A DNA stretch of 64,000 nt, from assembly GCA_050260055.1 (NCBI GenBank), contig JBLNBO010000046.1, positions 1,962 to 65,961 on the forward strand, read 5' to 3'. Numbering within the stretch: position 1 is the first letter of the stretch; each line of letters begins with the position of its first letter. The translations under genes and the position numbers were made by a program. The stretch comes from Ignavibacteriales bacterium (GTDB lineage Bacteria > Bacillota > Clostridia > Acetivibrionales > UBA4821). Of the stretch, positions 42,885 through 63,863 are shown in pieces. The notes under the pieces are model-generated. The model ran no database searches and was not told the DNA's origin. It worked only from the letters and a program-made list of their open reading frames with translations.

Positions 42885-43078
42885 TTTTAAACAAAAAAAC
42901 CATAGGCAAAAAAACCTATAGTTTCTGTCCAATCTTGTACACTTGATTGTTTCTGTTCCCCGGTCGCCCGGGTATTTGTTCAATCAATTACGAACGTACC
43001 ATCCGTGAGGTCATCCGCCGAATTTTCGATAAACCCCACCCTCGTCATCTGACTTTCGTCAGTGCTGGCGCTCAATTA
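42885..43078 (-). ncRNA. glmS ribozyme: glmS ribozyme (GlcN6P-dependent self-cleaving riboswitch)
   Basis: Minus strand reads AGCGCCAGCACUGACGAAAGUCAGAUGACGAGGGUGGGGUUUAUCGAAAAUUCGGCGGAUGACCUCACGG...CCCGGGCGACCGGGGAAC. This matches the conserved core as I recall it, and it sits directly 5' of glmS. Confidence 0.9.
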
Positions 43079-43133
43079 AGTTTTTAACAAATCTTATCTT
43101 CTAACCTATACGCATCTCTCCTTTCATATACCC

Positions 43134-43194
43134 CTTCGTAGATTTTTGCTATTTCTTCCCTCTATAGCATAGAGAGGGAAGTTAGAAGGGTGAG
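43134..43194 (+). repeat. Hairpin repeat ending GGGTGAGTT, copy A
   Basis: CTTCGTAGATTTTTGCTATTTCTTCCCTCTATAGCATAGAGAGGGAAGTTAGAAGGGTGAG. Closely similar by eye to copy B at 61387-61444. Confidence 0.85.
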
Positions 43195-43393
43195 TTTTCA
43201 CCTTTAGTATATTATATTTTAATACTATTCGCAAGGTGAAAAAATATTAGACAATGATTTAATATTATTATAAAATGGTGCTGTTGTTTATAATTGAATT
43301 TTCGGAATAATACAGGCGGTAATGGCCGGTTAGGATTTTGAGAGGAGGAGATACGCCCTTATTGGCAATATCTTGAGAAAAGGAGTGATGAAG

Positions 43394-59733: not shown

Positions 59734-60927
59734 TTATACTTTTGCCCCGCCTTTTTGTCCTTGCTTGGCTTTATTCAATATATCTGAATTGTAACAATAT
59801 ATGTTCCTATTCTTTTCCTCATTAACCTTGTAAGCTATATCAATCAGCTTATCAATCAACTCAGGATATTTAATACCCGAATGTTCCCATAAGTAGAATG
59901 AGAAAGAACCTGGAATTGTATTTATTTCATTTATATAAGGCTTCATACCTTTTTTCTCAATTATGAAATCAATCCTCGCAACTCCCCTACAGTCCATAGC
60001 CGTAAATGCTGAAATGGAAAGCTTTTTAATTTTCTCAGCAAGCTCATCCTTAATTGGGGCAGGAATCTTTCTTTGCATGCTTTCCATACCTGCTTCTGCC
60101 GAATCTTTTACTCCTCTTGTGTATTTATCTTCGAATGTTAAAAACTCCTCCCAATTAATCGGCTGTTCACAAACAGATGCCTCGATATCATTCCCATATC
60201 CCATTACGGCACAGTTTATTTCAATTGGGCCTTCTACCCCCTGTTCAACAATAATCTTCCTATCATAGTAAACAGCTGTCTCAATAGCCCTTTCAAGTTC
60301 ATCCCTATTTTTAGCTTTACTGATTCCTATGCTTGAACCTAGATTTGCAGGTTTAACAAAAACAGGATATTCAAGTTCAGCTTCAATATTTTTAATGATT
60401 TTATCTTTATCTGCATCCCATTCAACTCTTAGGAAGGTTGAATATTTTAGTATTGGAAGGTCATTGCCTTTGAAAACCGACTTCATAACTGCTTTATCCA
60501 TTCCCACCGCAGAACCTACTACACCAGATCCGACATAAGGAATGTTTGCAAGTTCAAGAAGTCCCTGAATTGTTCCGTCTTCCCCATTCATCCCATGCAT
60601 GGCAGGAATAACAACATCTACTCCTCTGAAGACACTATTTGAAAATATTCCGAATTTCTTTGGATATTGCATTACACCTTTTATTGATGGAACCGGAGGA
60701 ACAAGTACTTTTTTAAATAAGCGTTCTTTATATTCAAAATCTTTGTATACCTCTATATCTAAAAGATTCTTGCCAGTAAACCATTCGCCCTTATTTGAAA
60801 TATAGATTGGAATGATATTGTATTTTTCTTTGTTAATATTCTCGATAAGCTGAAGTCCAGTAACAATTGATACTTCATGCTCAACAGAACATCCTCCGAA
60901 TATTACTGCAACGTTTTGCTTGCTCAT
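59734..60927 (-). CDS. ddl: D-alanine--D-alanine ligase
   Basis: VAVIFGGCSVEHEVS, HGMNGEDGTIQGLLE, PVFVKPANLGSSIGI, EINTIPG. Confidence 0.93.
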   Translation of the reverse strand: MSKQNVAVIFGGCSVEHEVSIVTGLQLIENINKEKYNIIPIYISNKGEWFTGKNLLDIEVYKDFEYKERLFKKVLVPPVPSIKGVMQYPKKFGIFSNSVFRGVDVVIPAMHGMNGEDGTIQGLLELANIPYVGSGVVGSAVGMDKAVMKSVFKGNDLPILKYSTFLRVEWDADKDKIIKNIEAELEYPVFVKPANLGSSIGISKAKNRDELERAIETAVYYDRKIIVEQGVEGPIEINCAVMGYGNDIEASVCEQPINWEEFLTFEDKYTRGVKDSAEAGMESMQRKIPAPIKDELAEKIKKLSISAFTAMDCRGVARIDFIIEKKGMKPYINEINTIPGSFSFYLWEHSGIKYPELIDKLIDIAYKVNEEKNRNIYCYNSDILNKAKQGQKGGAKV

Positions 60928-60944
60928 GGCTTTCCCCCCATTAA

Positions 60945-60986
60945 CTCACCCCCTAGCCCCCTCTCTTAAGATAGAGGGGGAATTGG
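60945..60986 (-). repeat. Hairpin repeat ending GGGTGAGTT, copy C (between ddl and the DUF559 gene)
   Basis: Minus strand reads CCAATTCCCCCTCTATCTTAAGAGAGGGGGCTAGGGGGTGAG. Confidence 0.8.
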
Positions 60987-60993
60987 CAAGTTT

Positions 60994-61332
60994 TTATAGT
61001 AGATTTTTTAAAATATTTTTTATTCTTTCAATATCATATAATTCTTCATTCTTAAATCTTACTACTTTTATATTTAATTGATTGATAATATAGGTTCTTA
61101 AATCATCATAATCTTTTTGTTCTTCATGAACTCCACCATCTATTTCAACTACTAATTTTTTCTCATGACAGAAAAAATCAGCAATAAAAAATCTACTTTG
61201 TCCTTGATATGTAAAGCATAATGCAAATTGTCTAACAAACTTTATACCTAACTTTCTGTTCCTTACAACATCCCAAAATATCTTTTCGCTTTCAGTTTGT
61301 TTTTTCCTTAAGTTTCTAGTTATCTCTATCAT
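60994..61332 (-). CDS. DUF559 endonuclease-domain protein (Vsr/restriction-endonuclease-like fold)
   Basis: 112 aa. RKKQTESEKIFW..LR......F.RQ......ADFFC.EKKLVVEIDGGVH......D..R. This is typical DUF559. Confidence 0.8.
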   Translation of the reverse strand: MIEITRNLRKKQTESEKIFWDVVRNRKLGIKFVRQFALCFTYQGQSRFFIADFFCHEKKLVVEIDGGVHEEQKDYDDLRTYIINQLNIKVVRFKNEELYDIERIKNILKNLL

Positions 61333-61354
61333 CTTTCTTCCTCATATGAACTTC

Positions 61355-61444
61355 TTTCCCTCTATTTTAAGAGAGAAAATTAAGGACTTCGTAGATTTTA
61401 CTATTTTTCCCTCTATCTCGAGAGAGGGAAGATAGAAGGGTGAG
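61355..61444 (+). repeat. Degenerate hairpin (B') followed by hairpin repeat copy B, ending one base before the murF-like stop codon
   Basis: B' is TTTCCCTCTATTTTAAGAGAGAAAA. B is CTTCGTAGATTTTACTATTTTTCCCTCTATCTCGAGAGAGGGAAGATAGAAGGGTGAG. Confidence 0.8.
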
Positions 61445-63058
61445 TTATTCATCGTAGTTATCAGGCAAATCATTTTCAAAGAGAATTACATCTCCTGCTT
61501 TAATTACAGCAGCAAGTTTCGAAGACGCCTCATCAAGACTTGCAGCAACTATTATATTCTCCATTGGAAAGCCTTTATCCTTCAAACCTTCCTGAATTGC
61601 TTCGGTTCTTTTTTTGCCAACCAGTATTGCAATATCTGCAGATTCGGCTATACCCCTGCCAAAATCCTTATTCAGCTCATATTCCTCTTCCCCCAGTTCT
61701 ACCATTCCCGGGGTAATAATTATCTTTCTTCCATGAAACTGTGTAAGGACTTCTAGTGCCATTCTTGCGCCAATAGGATTAGAATTGAATGCATCATCAA
61801 TTACTATTGTACCATTTTGGGTAGGCAAAATTTGCAACCTGTGTGGAACAGGTTGAATCTTGGCAATACCTGCAGAAATCTGCTCAAATGTAAGACCAAG
61901 ATGCTTGGCAATTGCTGCACAACCTAAAATATTAAGTACGTTATGCTTGCCAAGAAGTCTGGTTTTACACTTTACACTCTCACCATCTTTATCTATTAAA
62001 TCGAAATTGCTCCCTGTATCCGAAAGTTCAATGTTTTTTACATATATATCTACTTCATCGAGGTGTTTTTCTAATCCATATAAAATCTTTTCAGTATTTG
62101 CTTTCTTGTAGAGATCATAGCATACTTCATTATCTGATGGGAAAAATCCTATTCCTCCCTGTTCAAGCCCTTCAATTAGCTCATATTTGGTTTTTGCAAT
62201 ATTTTCAATAGTTTTGAAGGTTTCAAGGTGTTGTTTCCCTATTGAACTTATTATTCCGTATTTAGGTCTGACTATATCGCAAAGTTCTTTTATATCTCCT
62301 ATGTTTCTTGCCCCCATTTCGGAAATAAAAACTTGATGAGTATTGTCTAACATTTCGCGTATTACCTTTGTTGTCCCCATTGTTGTATTATAGCTTTCCG
62401 GAGTTGATAACACCTTGTATTTCTCACCTAAAATCGTGGCTAGTATAAATTTTGTACTTGTTTTTCCATAGCTTCCGGTTATCCCGATTTTGATAAGATT
62501 GTCCATTCCAGCAATCTTTTCCCGGGCAGATTCTATATAAGTTCCCTGCCTGTATTTCTCAAAAGGCAAAACGATAGTGTTTGCAAGAAGAGTATTAATC
62601 GGGCATAAAACAAGTGTAGCTGAAAACCAAACCAATAATAAATCAGCCTGCATTCCGGAGAGGAATAAGAATACTGCATAAGATTCGGCAATAATTACAA
62701 ATGCACTTACTACAGCAAGCCTAATCATTCTATGTGTAAATGCCAATGGCTTCTTAACCTTCTTCTTTTTATATGAAGTTATAAACGGCAGTACCGAAAT
62801 TGAAAGAACTGCTATAAGAATAGTAGACAAAAAAGGCATTGAAATATCTATTGCTCTGCCGATTACCAAAACAGCCATAACAAAAGAAAAAGTAAGCAAA
62901 GGCTGAGCAAAAGCAGAATAAAGATTCTTTCCAAGCCAATCTGAATACTGCTTATTTTTATATCCTTCAAGTTGAATGATATGAAGCTGTCTTTTAGCAT
63001 AAAATGCATAGACTGAAAATCCTAACAAATTTGAGAATATTATTAATAATTCTTCCAT
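61445..63058 (-). CDS. murF: MurF-like Mur ligase (UDP-MurNAc-tripeptide--D-Ala-D-Ala ligase family) with an N-terminal polytopic membrane domain
   Basis: Residues 1 to about 165 form 4-5 TM helices. Then GITGSYGKTSTK (P-loop), EMGARNIGDI, GKHNVLNILGCAAIA, IDDAFNSNP. Confidence 0.75.
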   Translation of the reverse strand: MEELLIIFSNLLGFSVYAFYAKRQLHIIQLEGYKNKQYSDWLGKNLYSAFAQPLLTFSFVMAVLVIGRAIDISMPFLSTILIAVLSISVLPFITSYKKKKVKKPLAFTHRMIRLAVVSAFVIIAESYAVFLFLSGMQADLLLVWFSATLVLCPINTLLANTIVLPFEKYRQGTYIESAREKIAGMDNLIKIGITGSYGKTSTKFILATILGEKYKVLSTPESYNTTMGTTKVIREMLDNTHQVFISEMGARNIGDIKELCDIVRPKYGIISSIGKQHLETFKTIENIAKTKYELIEGLEQGGIGFFPSDNEVCYDLYKKANTEKILYGLEKHLDEVDIYVKNIELSDTGSNFDLIDKDGESVKCKTRLLGKHNVLNILGCAAIAKHLGLTFEQISAGIAKIQPVPHRLQILPTQNGTIVIDDAFNSNPIGARMALEVLTQFHGRKIIITPGMVELGEEEYELNKDFGRGIAESADIAILVGKKRTEAIQEGLKDKGFPMENIIVAASLDEASSKLAAVIKAGDVILFENDLPDNYDE

Positions 63059-63060
63059 AA

Positions 63061-63096
63061 CTCACCCCTTAAGCCCCTCTCTTAAAATAGAGGAGT
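63061..63096 (-). repeat. Hairpin repeat ending GGGTGAGTT, copy D, filling the hydrolase-murF intergenic gap
   Basis: Minus strand reads ACTCCTCTATTTTAAGAGAGGGGCTTAAGGGGTGAG followed by TTATG (the murF start). Confidence 0.8.
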
Positions 63097-63098
63097 AA

Positions 63099-63863
63099 TT
63101 ATGCTCCGAAGAAGCTGTCAATAATTTTATTAAACTCCCCGCTTTTATCCAAGTAAGAAAAATGTCCTGCATTCTTTAAAATTACAAGGCCTGAATCATT
63201 TATTTCTCTCTCCATGATTTTACCCATATAAATCGGTGTATCTGTATCATTTTCACCCCAAATTATAAGGGTTGGGGATTTTATATTCTTTAAAAATATC
63301 TTTAAATCTTGATTCACTATCTTAATAAACGAACCCCGCATATTTTCGCTAAGCTCTTTATAATCTGCTGAACCATACTTGCTTCTTGCTTTATTTAGAA
63401 TATTTTCATAGGCTTGCTTATTCCGTACAAATAATTTTATAAGGGTTTTTACAAATTTATATGAATACACCTTAATATAATATTTCAATCTTCTTTTAGG
63501 CTTTATACCGCCACTGTCGACAAGAACAATCTTGTCTATCATTTCAGGGTGTTCTGAAGCAAGAATTATTGTAGCCCTTCCGCCAAAAGAATGGGCAATA
63601 ATGCTTGTCTTTTCAATCTTTAAGGCTTGTAGAAATTTTATAAGGCAATCAGTATATTCCGGCACTCCCCAAGGTGAATCCGGAATTGAACTTTTACCAT
63701 GCCCGGGGAAATCAAGTGAAATTACCCTGAAACGGCTTTTAAGGTGATTGATAACCGGCCTCATGCTGTTAATACAGCCGCCCCAACCGTGAAGAATCAG
63801 CATGTTTTCGCCTTCGCCTTCAATTTCATAATTAATTTTTACGTTTTCTATTTCAATAATCAT
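63099..63863 (-). CDS. Alpha/beta hydrolase fold protein
   Basis: LILHGWGG, nucleophile elbow AHSFGG, C-terminal GHF. Confidence 0.8.
   Translation of the reverse strand: MIIEIENVKINYEIEGEGENMLILHGWGGCINSMRPVINHLKSRFRVISLDFPGHGKSSIPDSPWGVPEYTDCLIKFLQALKIEKTSIIAHSFGGRATIILASEHPEMIDKIVLVDSGGIKPKRRLKYYIKVYSYKFVKTLIKLFVRNKQAYENILNKARSKYGSADYKELSENMRGSFIKIVNQDLKIFLKNIKSPTLIIWGENDTDTPIYMGKIMEREINDSGLVILKNAGHFSYLDKSGEFNKIIDSFFGA

Follow-up and report, generated by a model that had tools for sequence, protein, structure and literature searches.

The repeat family described in the 1990s as BoxC, which is the same as the PIT elements of Hoyne and Maher and as TMECO, occurs in thousands of copies across bacteria, with its origin and role left open (Holder et al. 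2015, PMC4666352). Escherichia coli MG1655 carries 23 copies of the TMECO pattern, CCCTCNCCC-N3-6-GGGNGAGGG-N3-GGGNGAGGG, in two subtypes that pair as inverted repeats, and single-stranded DNA of the E. coli sequence was shown through circular dichroism (CD) as well as nuclear magnetic resonance (NMR) to form a stable triplex in vitro (PMC4666352). These triplex motifs (TMs) block DNA polymerase in vitro and have been linked to local genome variability or instability; the purine-motif triplex is reported not to form in RNA, and PIT elements, as summarised in the same paper, have neither promoter nor terminator activity in E. coli. Transposase or integrase remnants were “never found” near TMECO by Holder et al. 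(PMC4666352). Here we analyse a stretch of 64,000 nucleotides of contig JBLNBO010000046.1 (the window), in which two inverted copies of a repeat of this design enclose a gene encoding a small protein of the DUF559 family. The observation, first made in an initial annotation of the letters alone, is confirmed, its interpretation there was essentially right, and the pairing of repeat and gene recurs across many phyla, including E. coli.

PMC4666352 contains no mention of DUF559, of the E. coli DUF559 gene ycjD, or of the word “endonuclease”. Full-text searches for the gene names returned no literature link of DUF559 or ycjD to triplex repeats, and a systematic TM-DUF559 linkage appears to be unreported in the searchable literature. 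PIT elements were the subject of Hoyne et al. 2000 and Hoyne and Maher 2002 (J Mol Biol). The domain DUF559, of nuclease fold and very widespread, has a solved structure (3HRL) and a function so far unassigned; here it becomes a candidate for the protein partner of repeats that have been without an explained origin for ~30 years, through a link that is present in E. coli K-12.

Among mobile systems, a parallel is offered by the repetitive extragenic palindromic (REP) and REPIN repeats with their REP-associated tyrosine transposase (RAYT) genes. There, as here, one small nuclease-type gene lies between inverted copies of a structured repeat that is dispersed in the same genome, solo units and inverted doublets are also dispersed, and target-site duplications are absent. 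In contrast, RAYTs are HUH/Y1 enzymes acting through covalent intermediates, whereas DUF559 is of the hydrolytic PD-(D/E)XK type, and REPs are simple hairpins without a third-strand segment. The gene in the window belongs to PF04480 (DUF559) and is neither a HUH/Y1 (RAYT) nor a DDE transposase.

Inverted triplex motifs around a DUF559 gene

The pattern CCTCT-N4-14-AGAGG-N2-14-GGTGAG matches the window four times, at 43159-43194 (copy A, plus strand), 60945-60977 (C, minus), 61410-61444 (B, plus) and 63061-63093 (D, minus), and matches none of 100 shuffled versions. The tail GGGTGAGTT occurs four times versus 0.22 expected. With a half copy, B', matched at 61358-61375, the window holds four full repeat copies and one decayed copy, all of them intergenic, and a relaxed scan of the whole window revealed no repeat copies beyond A, B, B', C and D. 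Copies C and B flank the DUF559 gene as inverted repeats with the outward ends AACTCACC...GGTGAGTT, as the initial annotation had proposed, and its placement of copy B at the murF stop codon also holds: GGGTGAG ends at 61444, directly adjoining that codon. All genes of the locus (hydrolase, Mur-ligase, DUF559 and ddl) lie on the minus strand.

Each TM is composed of a pyrimidine (Y) arm, (C)CCCTCTCTT; a purine (R) arm that pairs with it, AAGAGAGGG(G); 2-7 nt; and a segment of G, T and A, (G)GGGTGAGTT, in which the purine arm is mirrored. Reading the purine arm AAGAGAGGGG from its 3' end gives GGGGAGAGAA, against the tail GGGGTGAGTT, with G opposite G and A or T opposite A throughout. All segments thereby comply with the triplets (G*G:C, A*A:T and T*A:T) that make up an antiparallel purine-motif triple helix. 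Judging from its sequence, the third segment of a single strand of DNA has the potential to bend back and lie along the hairpin. The initial annotation had described a hairpin, a spacer of 3-9 nt and a fixed tail; the copies are real, and what it gave as the spacer in A and B is a 5-nt linker together with the AA that closes the purine arm before it and the AA that opens the third segment after it. Three points had escaped it: the tail as a mirror third strand, membership of the BoxC/PIT/TM family, and the absence of the hallmarks of miniature inverted-repeat transposable elements (MITEs).

Motif C consists of the Y arm CCCCCTCTAT, the loop ctta, the R arm AGAGAGGGGG, the linker cta and the third strand GGGGGTGAGTT, giving 10 triplets with one Watson-Crick mismatch and no third-strand mismatch; as DNA its hairpin is predicted to fold at -8.5 kcal/mol with the tail unpaired. 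Motif B is made of TTCCCTCTAT, ctcg, AGAGAGGGAA, gatag and AAGGGTGAGTT, and it shares its final TT with the TAA stop codon of murF, whose complement TTA is at 61445-61447. The motif of copy A reads CTTCCCTCTAT agcat AGAGAGGGAAG tta GAAGGGTGAGT, with 11 triplets and a DNA fold z-score of -4.2. Copies A and B follow a design two triplets longer, with an additional TT in the pyrimidine arm and AA in both the purine arm and the tail. The stems of A, B and C are 10-11 long with one mismatch, and none has a third-strand mismatch. Over the motifs studied, hairpin stabilities range from -3 to -9 kcal/mol as computed by a folding tool that models Watson-Crick pairs only.

The three-segment design extends far beyond the window. 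An exact scan with CCTCT-N4-12-AGAGAGGG-N2-9-GGGTGAGTT, at one genome per species, matched at least 119 stretches, where we estimate ~5 for random sequence of that size. The lineages among the matches listed, by the labels under which the metagenome-assembled genomes (MAGs) were deposited, include Bacteroidota, Ignavibacteria, Calditrichia, Cloacimonadota, Latescibacterota, Spirochaetes, Bacillota, Proteobacteria and many members of the candidate phyla radiation (CPR). When 132 elements among these matches were aligned (alignment A1), conservation dropped sharply at either end, and the G-run of the purine arm equalled the G-run before TGAGTT (3/3, 4/4, 5/5). A subtype, T2, carries one matched extra base in each segment, CCCCTTCTCTT / AAGAGAAGGGG / GGGGATGAGTT. 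A rule-based script for the three-segment rule, which is not a thermodynamic model, found 333 motifs in 1.23 Mb of fetched loci versus 7 after shuffling. Outside the scan pattern, 101 of 437 pyrimidine/purine hairpins are followed by a mirror third strand with at most one mismatch; as controls, an offset position gave 8 of the same hairpins, an upstream one 3 and a direct-repeat rule 24. In the set selected through the protein, the mismatch between arm and tail is 3.7% for true partners versus 16.3% (standard deviation 0.6) for permuted ones. Deinococcus provides arms that are wholly different, CCTCCCCC / GGGGGAGG / GGAGGGGG, and the mirror rule is kept.

These data bear on the plainest explanation, that the repeats are ordinary terminator or RNA-stabiliser hairpins with a Shine-Dalgarno-like tail, their mirror symmetry and their adjacency to DUF559 being coincidental. 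By inspection GGGGTGA can pair with the anti-Shine-Dalgarno sequence, and the modest stabilities above would suit such hairpins. We nevertheless judge this explanation very improbable, because no chance matches are expected in the window, the three-segment covariation withstands both controls and permutation, TMs are enriched 44-fold beside DUF559 (see below), copies occur in both orientations relative to genes, and the cassette has no predicted terminator-like site, in particular no T-run terminator. At gathering thresholds, Rfam matched only the glmS ribozyme in the window, and no match was obtained in the region 60850-63150 even at E-values up to 1. The suggestion in the initial annotation that the hairpins might serve as RNA processing or stabiliser sites finds no support: they lie in both orientations relative to transcription, and the purine-motif triplex is reported not to form in RNA (PMC4666352).

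The window repeat compares closely with the published family. Both have a pyrimidine arm, a loop, a purine arm, a short linker and a mirror third strand of G, T and A; in both a core GAGAGGG arm is mirrored by a GGGTGAG tail; and both are intergenic, multi-copy, divided into two inverted-pairing subtypes and variable between close relatives. They differ in sequence, CCCTCT(C/A)TT / AAGAGAGGG / GGGTGAGTT in the window versus CCCTCNCCC / GGGNGAGGG / GGGNGAGGG in TMECO, and in that the published work describes neither an associated mobility gene nor DUF559. The literal TMECO pattern is not matched in the window, where arms end in ...CTAT / AGAG... and the tail in GAGTT; the window arms are AT-richer, and hence fail the published pattern literally while keeping the same design. 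By this comparison of sequences the window repeat is an AT-richer variant within the BoxC/PIT/TM family. Two other analogies were rejected, that with integron attC sites, since inverted ends flank the open reading frame (ORF) here in place of one site after it, and that of GGTGAGT with an intron 5' splice site, there being no intron domains and no Rfam match.

The product of the enclosed gene scores 83.7 bits against the DUF559 Pfam model (gathering cutoff 20.6), and D52, E63, D65 and H69 are present and fall in columns that are invariant in alignment A2 (D...ExDG..H). The nearest solved structure is PDB 3HRL, an “endonuclease-like protein” (E 2e-22). Together these bear out the Vsr/restriction-endonuclease-like fold that had been suggested from the letters. 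A reading as a defence gene was rejected, PADLOC returning only weak nuclease-domain matches (E 4e-5 and 2e-4). The idea that the extra A of the T2 tail (GGGG-ATG-AGTT) provides the DUF559 start was likewise rejected, the ATG being in frame in only 4 of 79 genes.

Association of triplex motifs with DUF559 across genomes

Eighty metagenome loci were fetched through the protein alone, and 65 of their DUF559 genes have at least 200 bp of flank on both sides. A strict TM was found within 200 bp of 56 of these 65 genes, and on both sides of 41. TM density is 5.4 per kb in DUF559 flanks, 44 times the 0.12 per kb of the remaining parts of these loci. In the commonest layout the tails point outward on both sides, as in the window, where the third-strand tails are the outward ends of the cassette; in the second, the gene stands between two T1/T2 inverted pairs. 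In the loci covered by the count of neighbouring pairs, the commonest arrangement is a gene-free tail-outward pair 0-60 bp apart (62 cases), and of the 23 tail-outward pairs that lie 201-700 bp apart, 22 enclose DUF559. Taken from the side of the repeat, DUF559 lies within 300 bp of 18 of 135 pattern-selected TMs among the matches listed, far above chance for a gene present once or a few times per genome; the same figure means that most motifs are solo. Gene-less TMs, whether solo (as A and D) or in back-to-back pairs, were shown to be common.

The association is also seen in five of seven isolates from five phyla or classes. In Deinococcus proteolyticus the motif-DUF559-motif layout is perfect and the arms are unrelated in sequence, and motifs lie within 200 bp of DUF559 in Azospirillum lipoferum, Synechocystis sp. 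B12 and Neisseria gonorrhoeae; under strict criteria, two cyanobacterial plasmids have no motif near DUF559. Motif read-through explains the spurious PLS..GEG..GV/GEL-type peptide tails found on many DUF559 gene calls. The ORF list of the window contains the pseudo-peptide ...THPLAPSLKIEGE... that the initial annotation had derived from copy C, and the peptides of this kind that it mentioned beside DUF559 genes elsewhere are real: P0025 ends ...SPLSEKRGAGGEL, P0018 ends ...QTHPKSLS and P0005 starts ...SPPRPLSFQKRGRKEV.

The E. coli gene ycjD carries a decayed motif at its 3' end, and a full TMECO follows it 186 bp downstream. The gene is present in 3377 of 5426 complete E. coli genomes, and in an evenly spaced sample the median number of TM-like matches per genome is 22 in ycjD-positive versus 5.5 in ycjD-negative genomes (Mann-Whitney p 1e-8), a copy-number comparison that is confounded by phylogroup. 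Between E. coli lineages ycjD alternates with eefRABCD (PMC12817139). A clean empty ycjD site was sought and rejected: ycjD-negative genomes carry a multi-kb TetR and RND pump region (eefRABCD), and no precise excision allele is readable. The breakpoint of the eefRABCD replacement in these genomes falls ~40 nt past TMECO. On contig L156 (1790-1960, sapF-ycjD-fabI), a partial duplicate of the last ~60 nt of ycjD is followed by the decayed motif and then by the intact TMECO.

Vsr, whose fold DUF559 shares, is a repair nickase, and TMs could be structural or regulatory DNA motifs of the host, with DUF559 a host nuclease that processes or repairs triplex-stalled DNA; the two would then be linked in function and not by shared mobility. 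The polymerase block in vitro and the local instability at TMs (PMC4666352) accord with such a role, as does a third strand that doubles as a Shine-Dalgarno sequence before murF and cas2. A repair gene, however, need not be bounded by inverted copies of its substrate, yet 41 of the 65 genes are; close relatives differ in whether they have the gene, and the loci where it lies are unrelated (murF/ddl, cas1/cas2, histidine kinase/ABC transporter, aminotransferase); and PIT elements have, as PMC4666352 summarises it, no promoter or terminator activity in E. coli. A host function of this kind is in our view quite unlikely.

Several further occurrences of TMs were noted. Near-identical “viral” contigs in IMG/VR, 3300009320_001144 and 3300009431_001171 (L010, L013, L019, L029, L032), carry TMs over ~20-27 kb, in every case on the same strand, antisense to the genes; in several the tail abuts a stop codon, and the intervening ORFs have no Pfam match. 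In CPR and other MAGs, tail-outward pairs ~1 kb apart surround small accessory genes in place of DUF559 (L054 2714-4897, L149 3340-4417 and L153 1992-2927) encoding a NYN-domain nuclease, a UPF0150 (HicB-like) protein, a HepT-like ribonuclease and an RRM protein. A MAG labelled Methanoregula sp. (L142) has bacterial-type TMs, through either bin contamination or a family that reaches archaea.

Insertion between murF and ddl and candidate routes of movement

The initial annotation had called for a comparison of the murF-ddl junction with relatives lacking DUF559, and this comparison defines the ends of the insertion. On three contigs carrying close Ddl homologues, the hydrolase-murF-ddl order is kept and DUF559 is absent. 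The murF-ddl gap is 17-18 nt in L241 (87% Ddl identity), where it reads GATGAATAAAAACTGGGGGTATAACCATG, and in L243 (84%), and it is an AT-rich 92 nt in L239 (92%); at the murF-ddl site none of the three has a triplex motif. Set against the empty alleles L241 and L243, the insert in the window spans AACTCACC to GGTGAGTT, and its ends fall precisely at the inverted repeats. It extends from the murF stop (GATGAATAA / CTCACCC...) to ...GGGGGTGAGTTAA / TGGGGGGAAAGCCATG, leaving both genes and the ddl ribosome-binding site intact. The ddl gene retains its own Shine-Dalgarno sequence (GGGGGGAAAGCC, then ATG) in the same context as in the empty sites of the relatives. This comparison of filled and empty alleles shows that the cassette entered as a single unit between the stop codon of murF and the ribosome-binding site of ddl. 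Since the empty sites lack TMs, the TMs probably arrived here together with the gene.

Related cassettes support movement as one piece. Contig L237 has the same insert at 97% nucleotide identity: B, the ~21-nt extension and B' are identical, motif C differs in its loop only, and DUF559 has ~6% substitutions. A DUF559 protein 69% identical to that of the window (P0003, contig L238) is encoded between an aminotransferase gene and an unrelated gene in the same layout as in the window, with a comparably decayed stretch at the position of B' and with the TAA of the upstream gene abutting AACTCACC. The L238 cassette carries the same rare CTAT arm variant as the window, and this sharing at different loci indicates that TMs and gene moved as one unit. 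Further DUF559 homologues lie at the cas1/cas2 genes of a type II CRISPR locus and between histidine kinase and ABC transporter genes, with the same flanking motifs. A tail-bounded unit that is present or absent between close relatives, and that recurs at unrelated loci, is thereby shown by sequence comparison. The insertion polymorphism, the second locus and the 44-fold enrichment together strengthen the original suggestion of a small mobile or selfish cassette. The L238 cassette and the empty allele L243 come from the same sample, SRR30200691.

The likening of the solo copies to MITE or REP derivatives, also made in the initial annotation, is supported by the abundance of gene-less repeat pairs. 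The hallmarks of MITEs are absent, there being neither a target-site duplication nor a DDE transposase. As in MITEs with their parent transposons (Correia, Nezha), terminal inverted repeats surround a small coding element, there are many gene-less derivatives with two ends, and insertions in operons have little polar effect; unlike in MITEs, the ends are of triplex type. Hairpin-structured ends and the absence of target-site duplication are shared with IS200/IS605, for which movement as single-stranded DNA is a plausible parallel, whereas IS200/IS605 ends are not mutual inverted repeats, and those elements have a HUH transposase and are larger. The lack of target-site duplications fits a copy or repair route better than DDE-type transposition.

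On balance we favour, with modest confidence, the reading that DUF559 and the inverted TMs bounding it form a selfish cassette of ~0.5 kb, DUF559 acting on TM ends and the solo TMs being non-autonomous derivatives. The DUF559 protein would recognise a folded or duplex TM and nick at or near its end, and host replication or repair would copy the element into new sites. Solo and paired TMs would stand to this gene as REPs and REPINs stand to RAYT genes. Life within operons may be tolerated because the element has no predicted terminator, its tail end can rebuild a TAA stop and its G-rich tail can act as a Shine-Dalgarno sequence. Where a gene ends no more than 30 nt from the tail (73 motifs), the terminal TT is common to the TAA stop in 23, as in B and murF. 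A G-rich tail stands at Shine-Dalgarno distance in D before murF (GGGGTGAGTTATG) and in an L002 motif before cas2 (GGGGGTGAGTTACATG). In L241 and L243, GGGGGTGAGTT(A)ATG precedes murF without a hairpin, which indicates that the tail can persist as a functional ribosome-binding site after the remainder of the motif is lost and lends weight to the earlier notion of repeats co-opted as operon punctuation.

A number of observations weigh against this selfish-cassette reading. That DUF559 acts on TMs is something we infer from sequence arrangement. Nucleases of the PD-(D/E)XK type hydrolyse DNA without strand transfer, so that DUF559 alone cannot be a complete transposase and host replication or repair must complete the copying. 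No target-site duplication was found, k-mers of 2-5 nt at four boundary offsets in 288 elements showing no excess over shuffled pairings, and Holder et al. obtained no triplex footprint in vivo for TMECO (PMC4666352). A strict TM is lacking near 9 of the 65 sampled DUF559 genes, and among the matches listed 87% of pattern-matching TMs are without DUF559 within 300 bp. IMG/VR contigs carry 8-10 TMs in places where DUF559 is not close by, ycjD-negative E. coli still have TMs, and other small genes (NYN, HicB-like, HepT, RRM) are sometimes found between TMs.

Homing endonucleases with a Vsr-like PD-(D/E)XK fold are known, namely the I-Bth0305I family, whose free-standing members are, like the DUF559 gene of the window, small stand-alone genes of Vsr-like fold with presence/absence polymorphism at precise sites. 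DUF559 might therefore be a free-standing homing endonuclease gene that cuts a pre-existing, unoccupied TM or TM pair and is copied in through TM homology arms, TMs spreading independently. The 62 tail-outward pairs 0-60 bp apart resemble an unoccupied form of the TM-DUF559-TM layout, and the second architecture, with a TM pair on each side of the gene, also speaks for homing. Against homing stand the three empty murF-ddl alleles, which lack TMs (they come from relatives at 84-92%, not from a direct ancestor), and the rare CTAT variant at different loci in the window and L238, a sign of unit movement. Homing endonucleases sit in introns, inteins or conserved genes and need allelic homology, whereas the window cassette brings its repeat ends to unrelated intergenic sites. 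We think homing unlikely.

A bolder extension of the selfish-cassette reading, which we offer tentatively and hold to be possible rather than probable, is that DUF559 proteins, including E. coli YcjD, are the cognate structure-specific nucleases of BoxC/PIT/TM triplexes and drive a minimal mobile element of ~0.5 kb, a new class ranging from CPR to E. coli. If true, it would provide a first biological role both for a large domain of unknown function and for a natural DNA triplex. A non-B DNA structure would be the recognition element of a mobile element whose ends are triplex motifs and not plain inverted repeats, and the “instability” reported around TM motifs would be explained. The TM-DUF559 link merges two open questions into one that is directly testable in E. 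coli K-12, with YcjD and TMECO DNA.

Features of the window and of related loci

The features of the window are collected in Table 1.

Table 1. Coordinates of the cassette, the repeat copies and the neighbouring genes in the window
Feature	Position	Strand	Remarks
DUF559 gene, 112 aa, Vsr-like PD-(D/E)XK endonuclease fold	60994..61332	-	PF04480, E 1e-23
Whole inserted cassette (B, B', DUF559, C)	60943..61446	-	Between murF stop codon and native ddl Shine-Dalgarno
Triplex motif C	60943..60980	-	Downstream of DUF559; tail outward, towards ddl
B', decayed triplex motif	61358..61385	+	Y arm and loop intact; R arm eroded to AGAGAGAAAA; no third strand
Extension of ~21 nt, CTTCGTAGATTTTACTATTTT	61386..61406	+	Internal to cassette; common to copy A (alignment A4)
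Triplex motif B	61407..61446	+	Upstream of DUF559; tail outward
Triplex motif D, solo	63059..63094	-	Degenerate Y arm (2 mismatches); occupies hydrolase-murF gap
Copy A, solo: ~21-nt extension and triplex motif	43134..43196	+	Between promoter-like site and glmS ribozyme; antisense to glmS
ddl, downstream flank	59734..60927	-	Pfam Dala_Dala_lig N- and C-terminal domains
Mur-ligase (murF-like) gene, upstream flank of insertion	61445..63058	-	Pfam Mur_ligase_M and Mur_ligase_C
Alpha/beta hydrolase	63863..63099	-	

Motif D fills its gap as first described, and its third strand GGGGTGAGTT abuts the murF ATG on the 5' side, where it is likely to be the murF Shine-Dalgarno sequence. Rfam puts the glmS ribozyme on the minus strand at 42933-43083, and copy A lies ~70 nt away from it, in agreement with the neighbourhood first reported for this copy. 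A minus-strand promoter-like site (43240..43211, 10/12 matches) lies upstream of copy A. In this position, between the promoter-like site and the ribozyme, copy A would be transcribed antisense in the glmS leader, upstream of the ribozyme cleavage site. On the plus strand, the tail of copy A and the following TTCACCTT pair into a terminator-like hairpin. A promoter within the extension shared by A and B was considered and rejected, the consensus scan placing the promoter further upstream of A.

At the other end of the cassette, GAGTTAATGGGGGGAAAGCCATGA after motif C (60928-60945) makes a five-codon ORF, ATGGGGGGAAAGCCATGA, that overlaps the ddl start codon; it is probably incidental, since the 97%-identical L237 has a 2-nt insertion that removes its ATG. 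The murF-like product has 537 aa, with the Mur-ligase middle domain starting at residue 193 after a hydrophobic N-terminal region that has no Pfam match. Given this region, and a hydrolase-ligase-ddl order that is kept in relatives, the gene may not be the housekeeping murF.

In L002 (9900-10470), the cas1 and cas2 genes of a type II (cas9) locus are separated by a DUF559 cassette. The cas1 frame runs through the first triplex motif, and the called DUF559 ORF reads through the downstream motif, ending in the tail ...SPLSEKRGAGGEL. The true cas2 start is probably the ATG directly after GGGGGTGAGTTAC (MRFNEYRIMW...). In L243 (2290-2370), the hydrolase-murF spacer holds a different small three-segment motif, CCTCCTATTAGGAGG-GATAG-GGAGGTATG, upstream of the retained GGGGGTGAGTTAATG.

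The labels of the genomes around this locus disagree. A protein identical to the window DUF559 (P0001) is deposited under “MAG: Ignavibacteriales bacterium”, and the relative with 87% Ddl identity (P0085) under “Deltaproteobacteria bacterium”. The best named Ddl homologues are from Caloramator, Oxobacter and other Clostridia (55-59%), and the related contig L243 encodes SspH and a sortase. These features suggest that the organism is a Clostridia-type Firmicute and that the MAG labels are doubtful.

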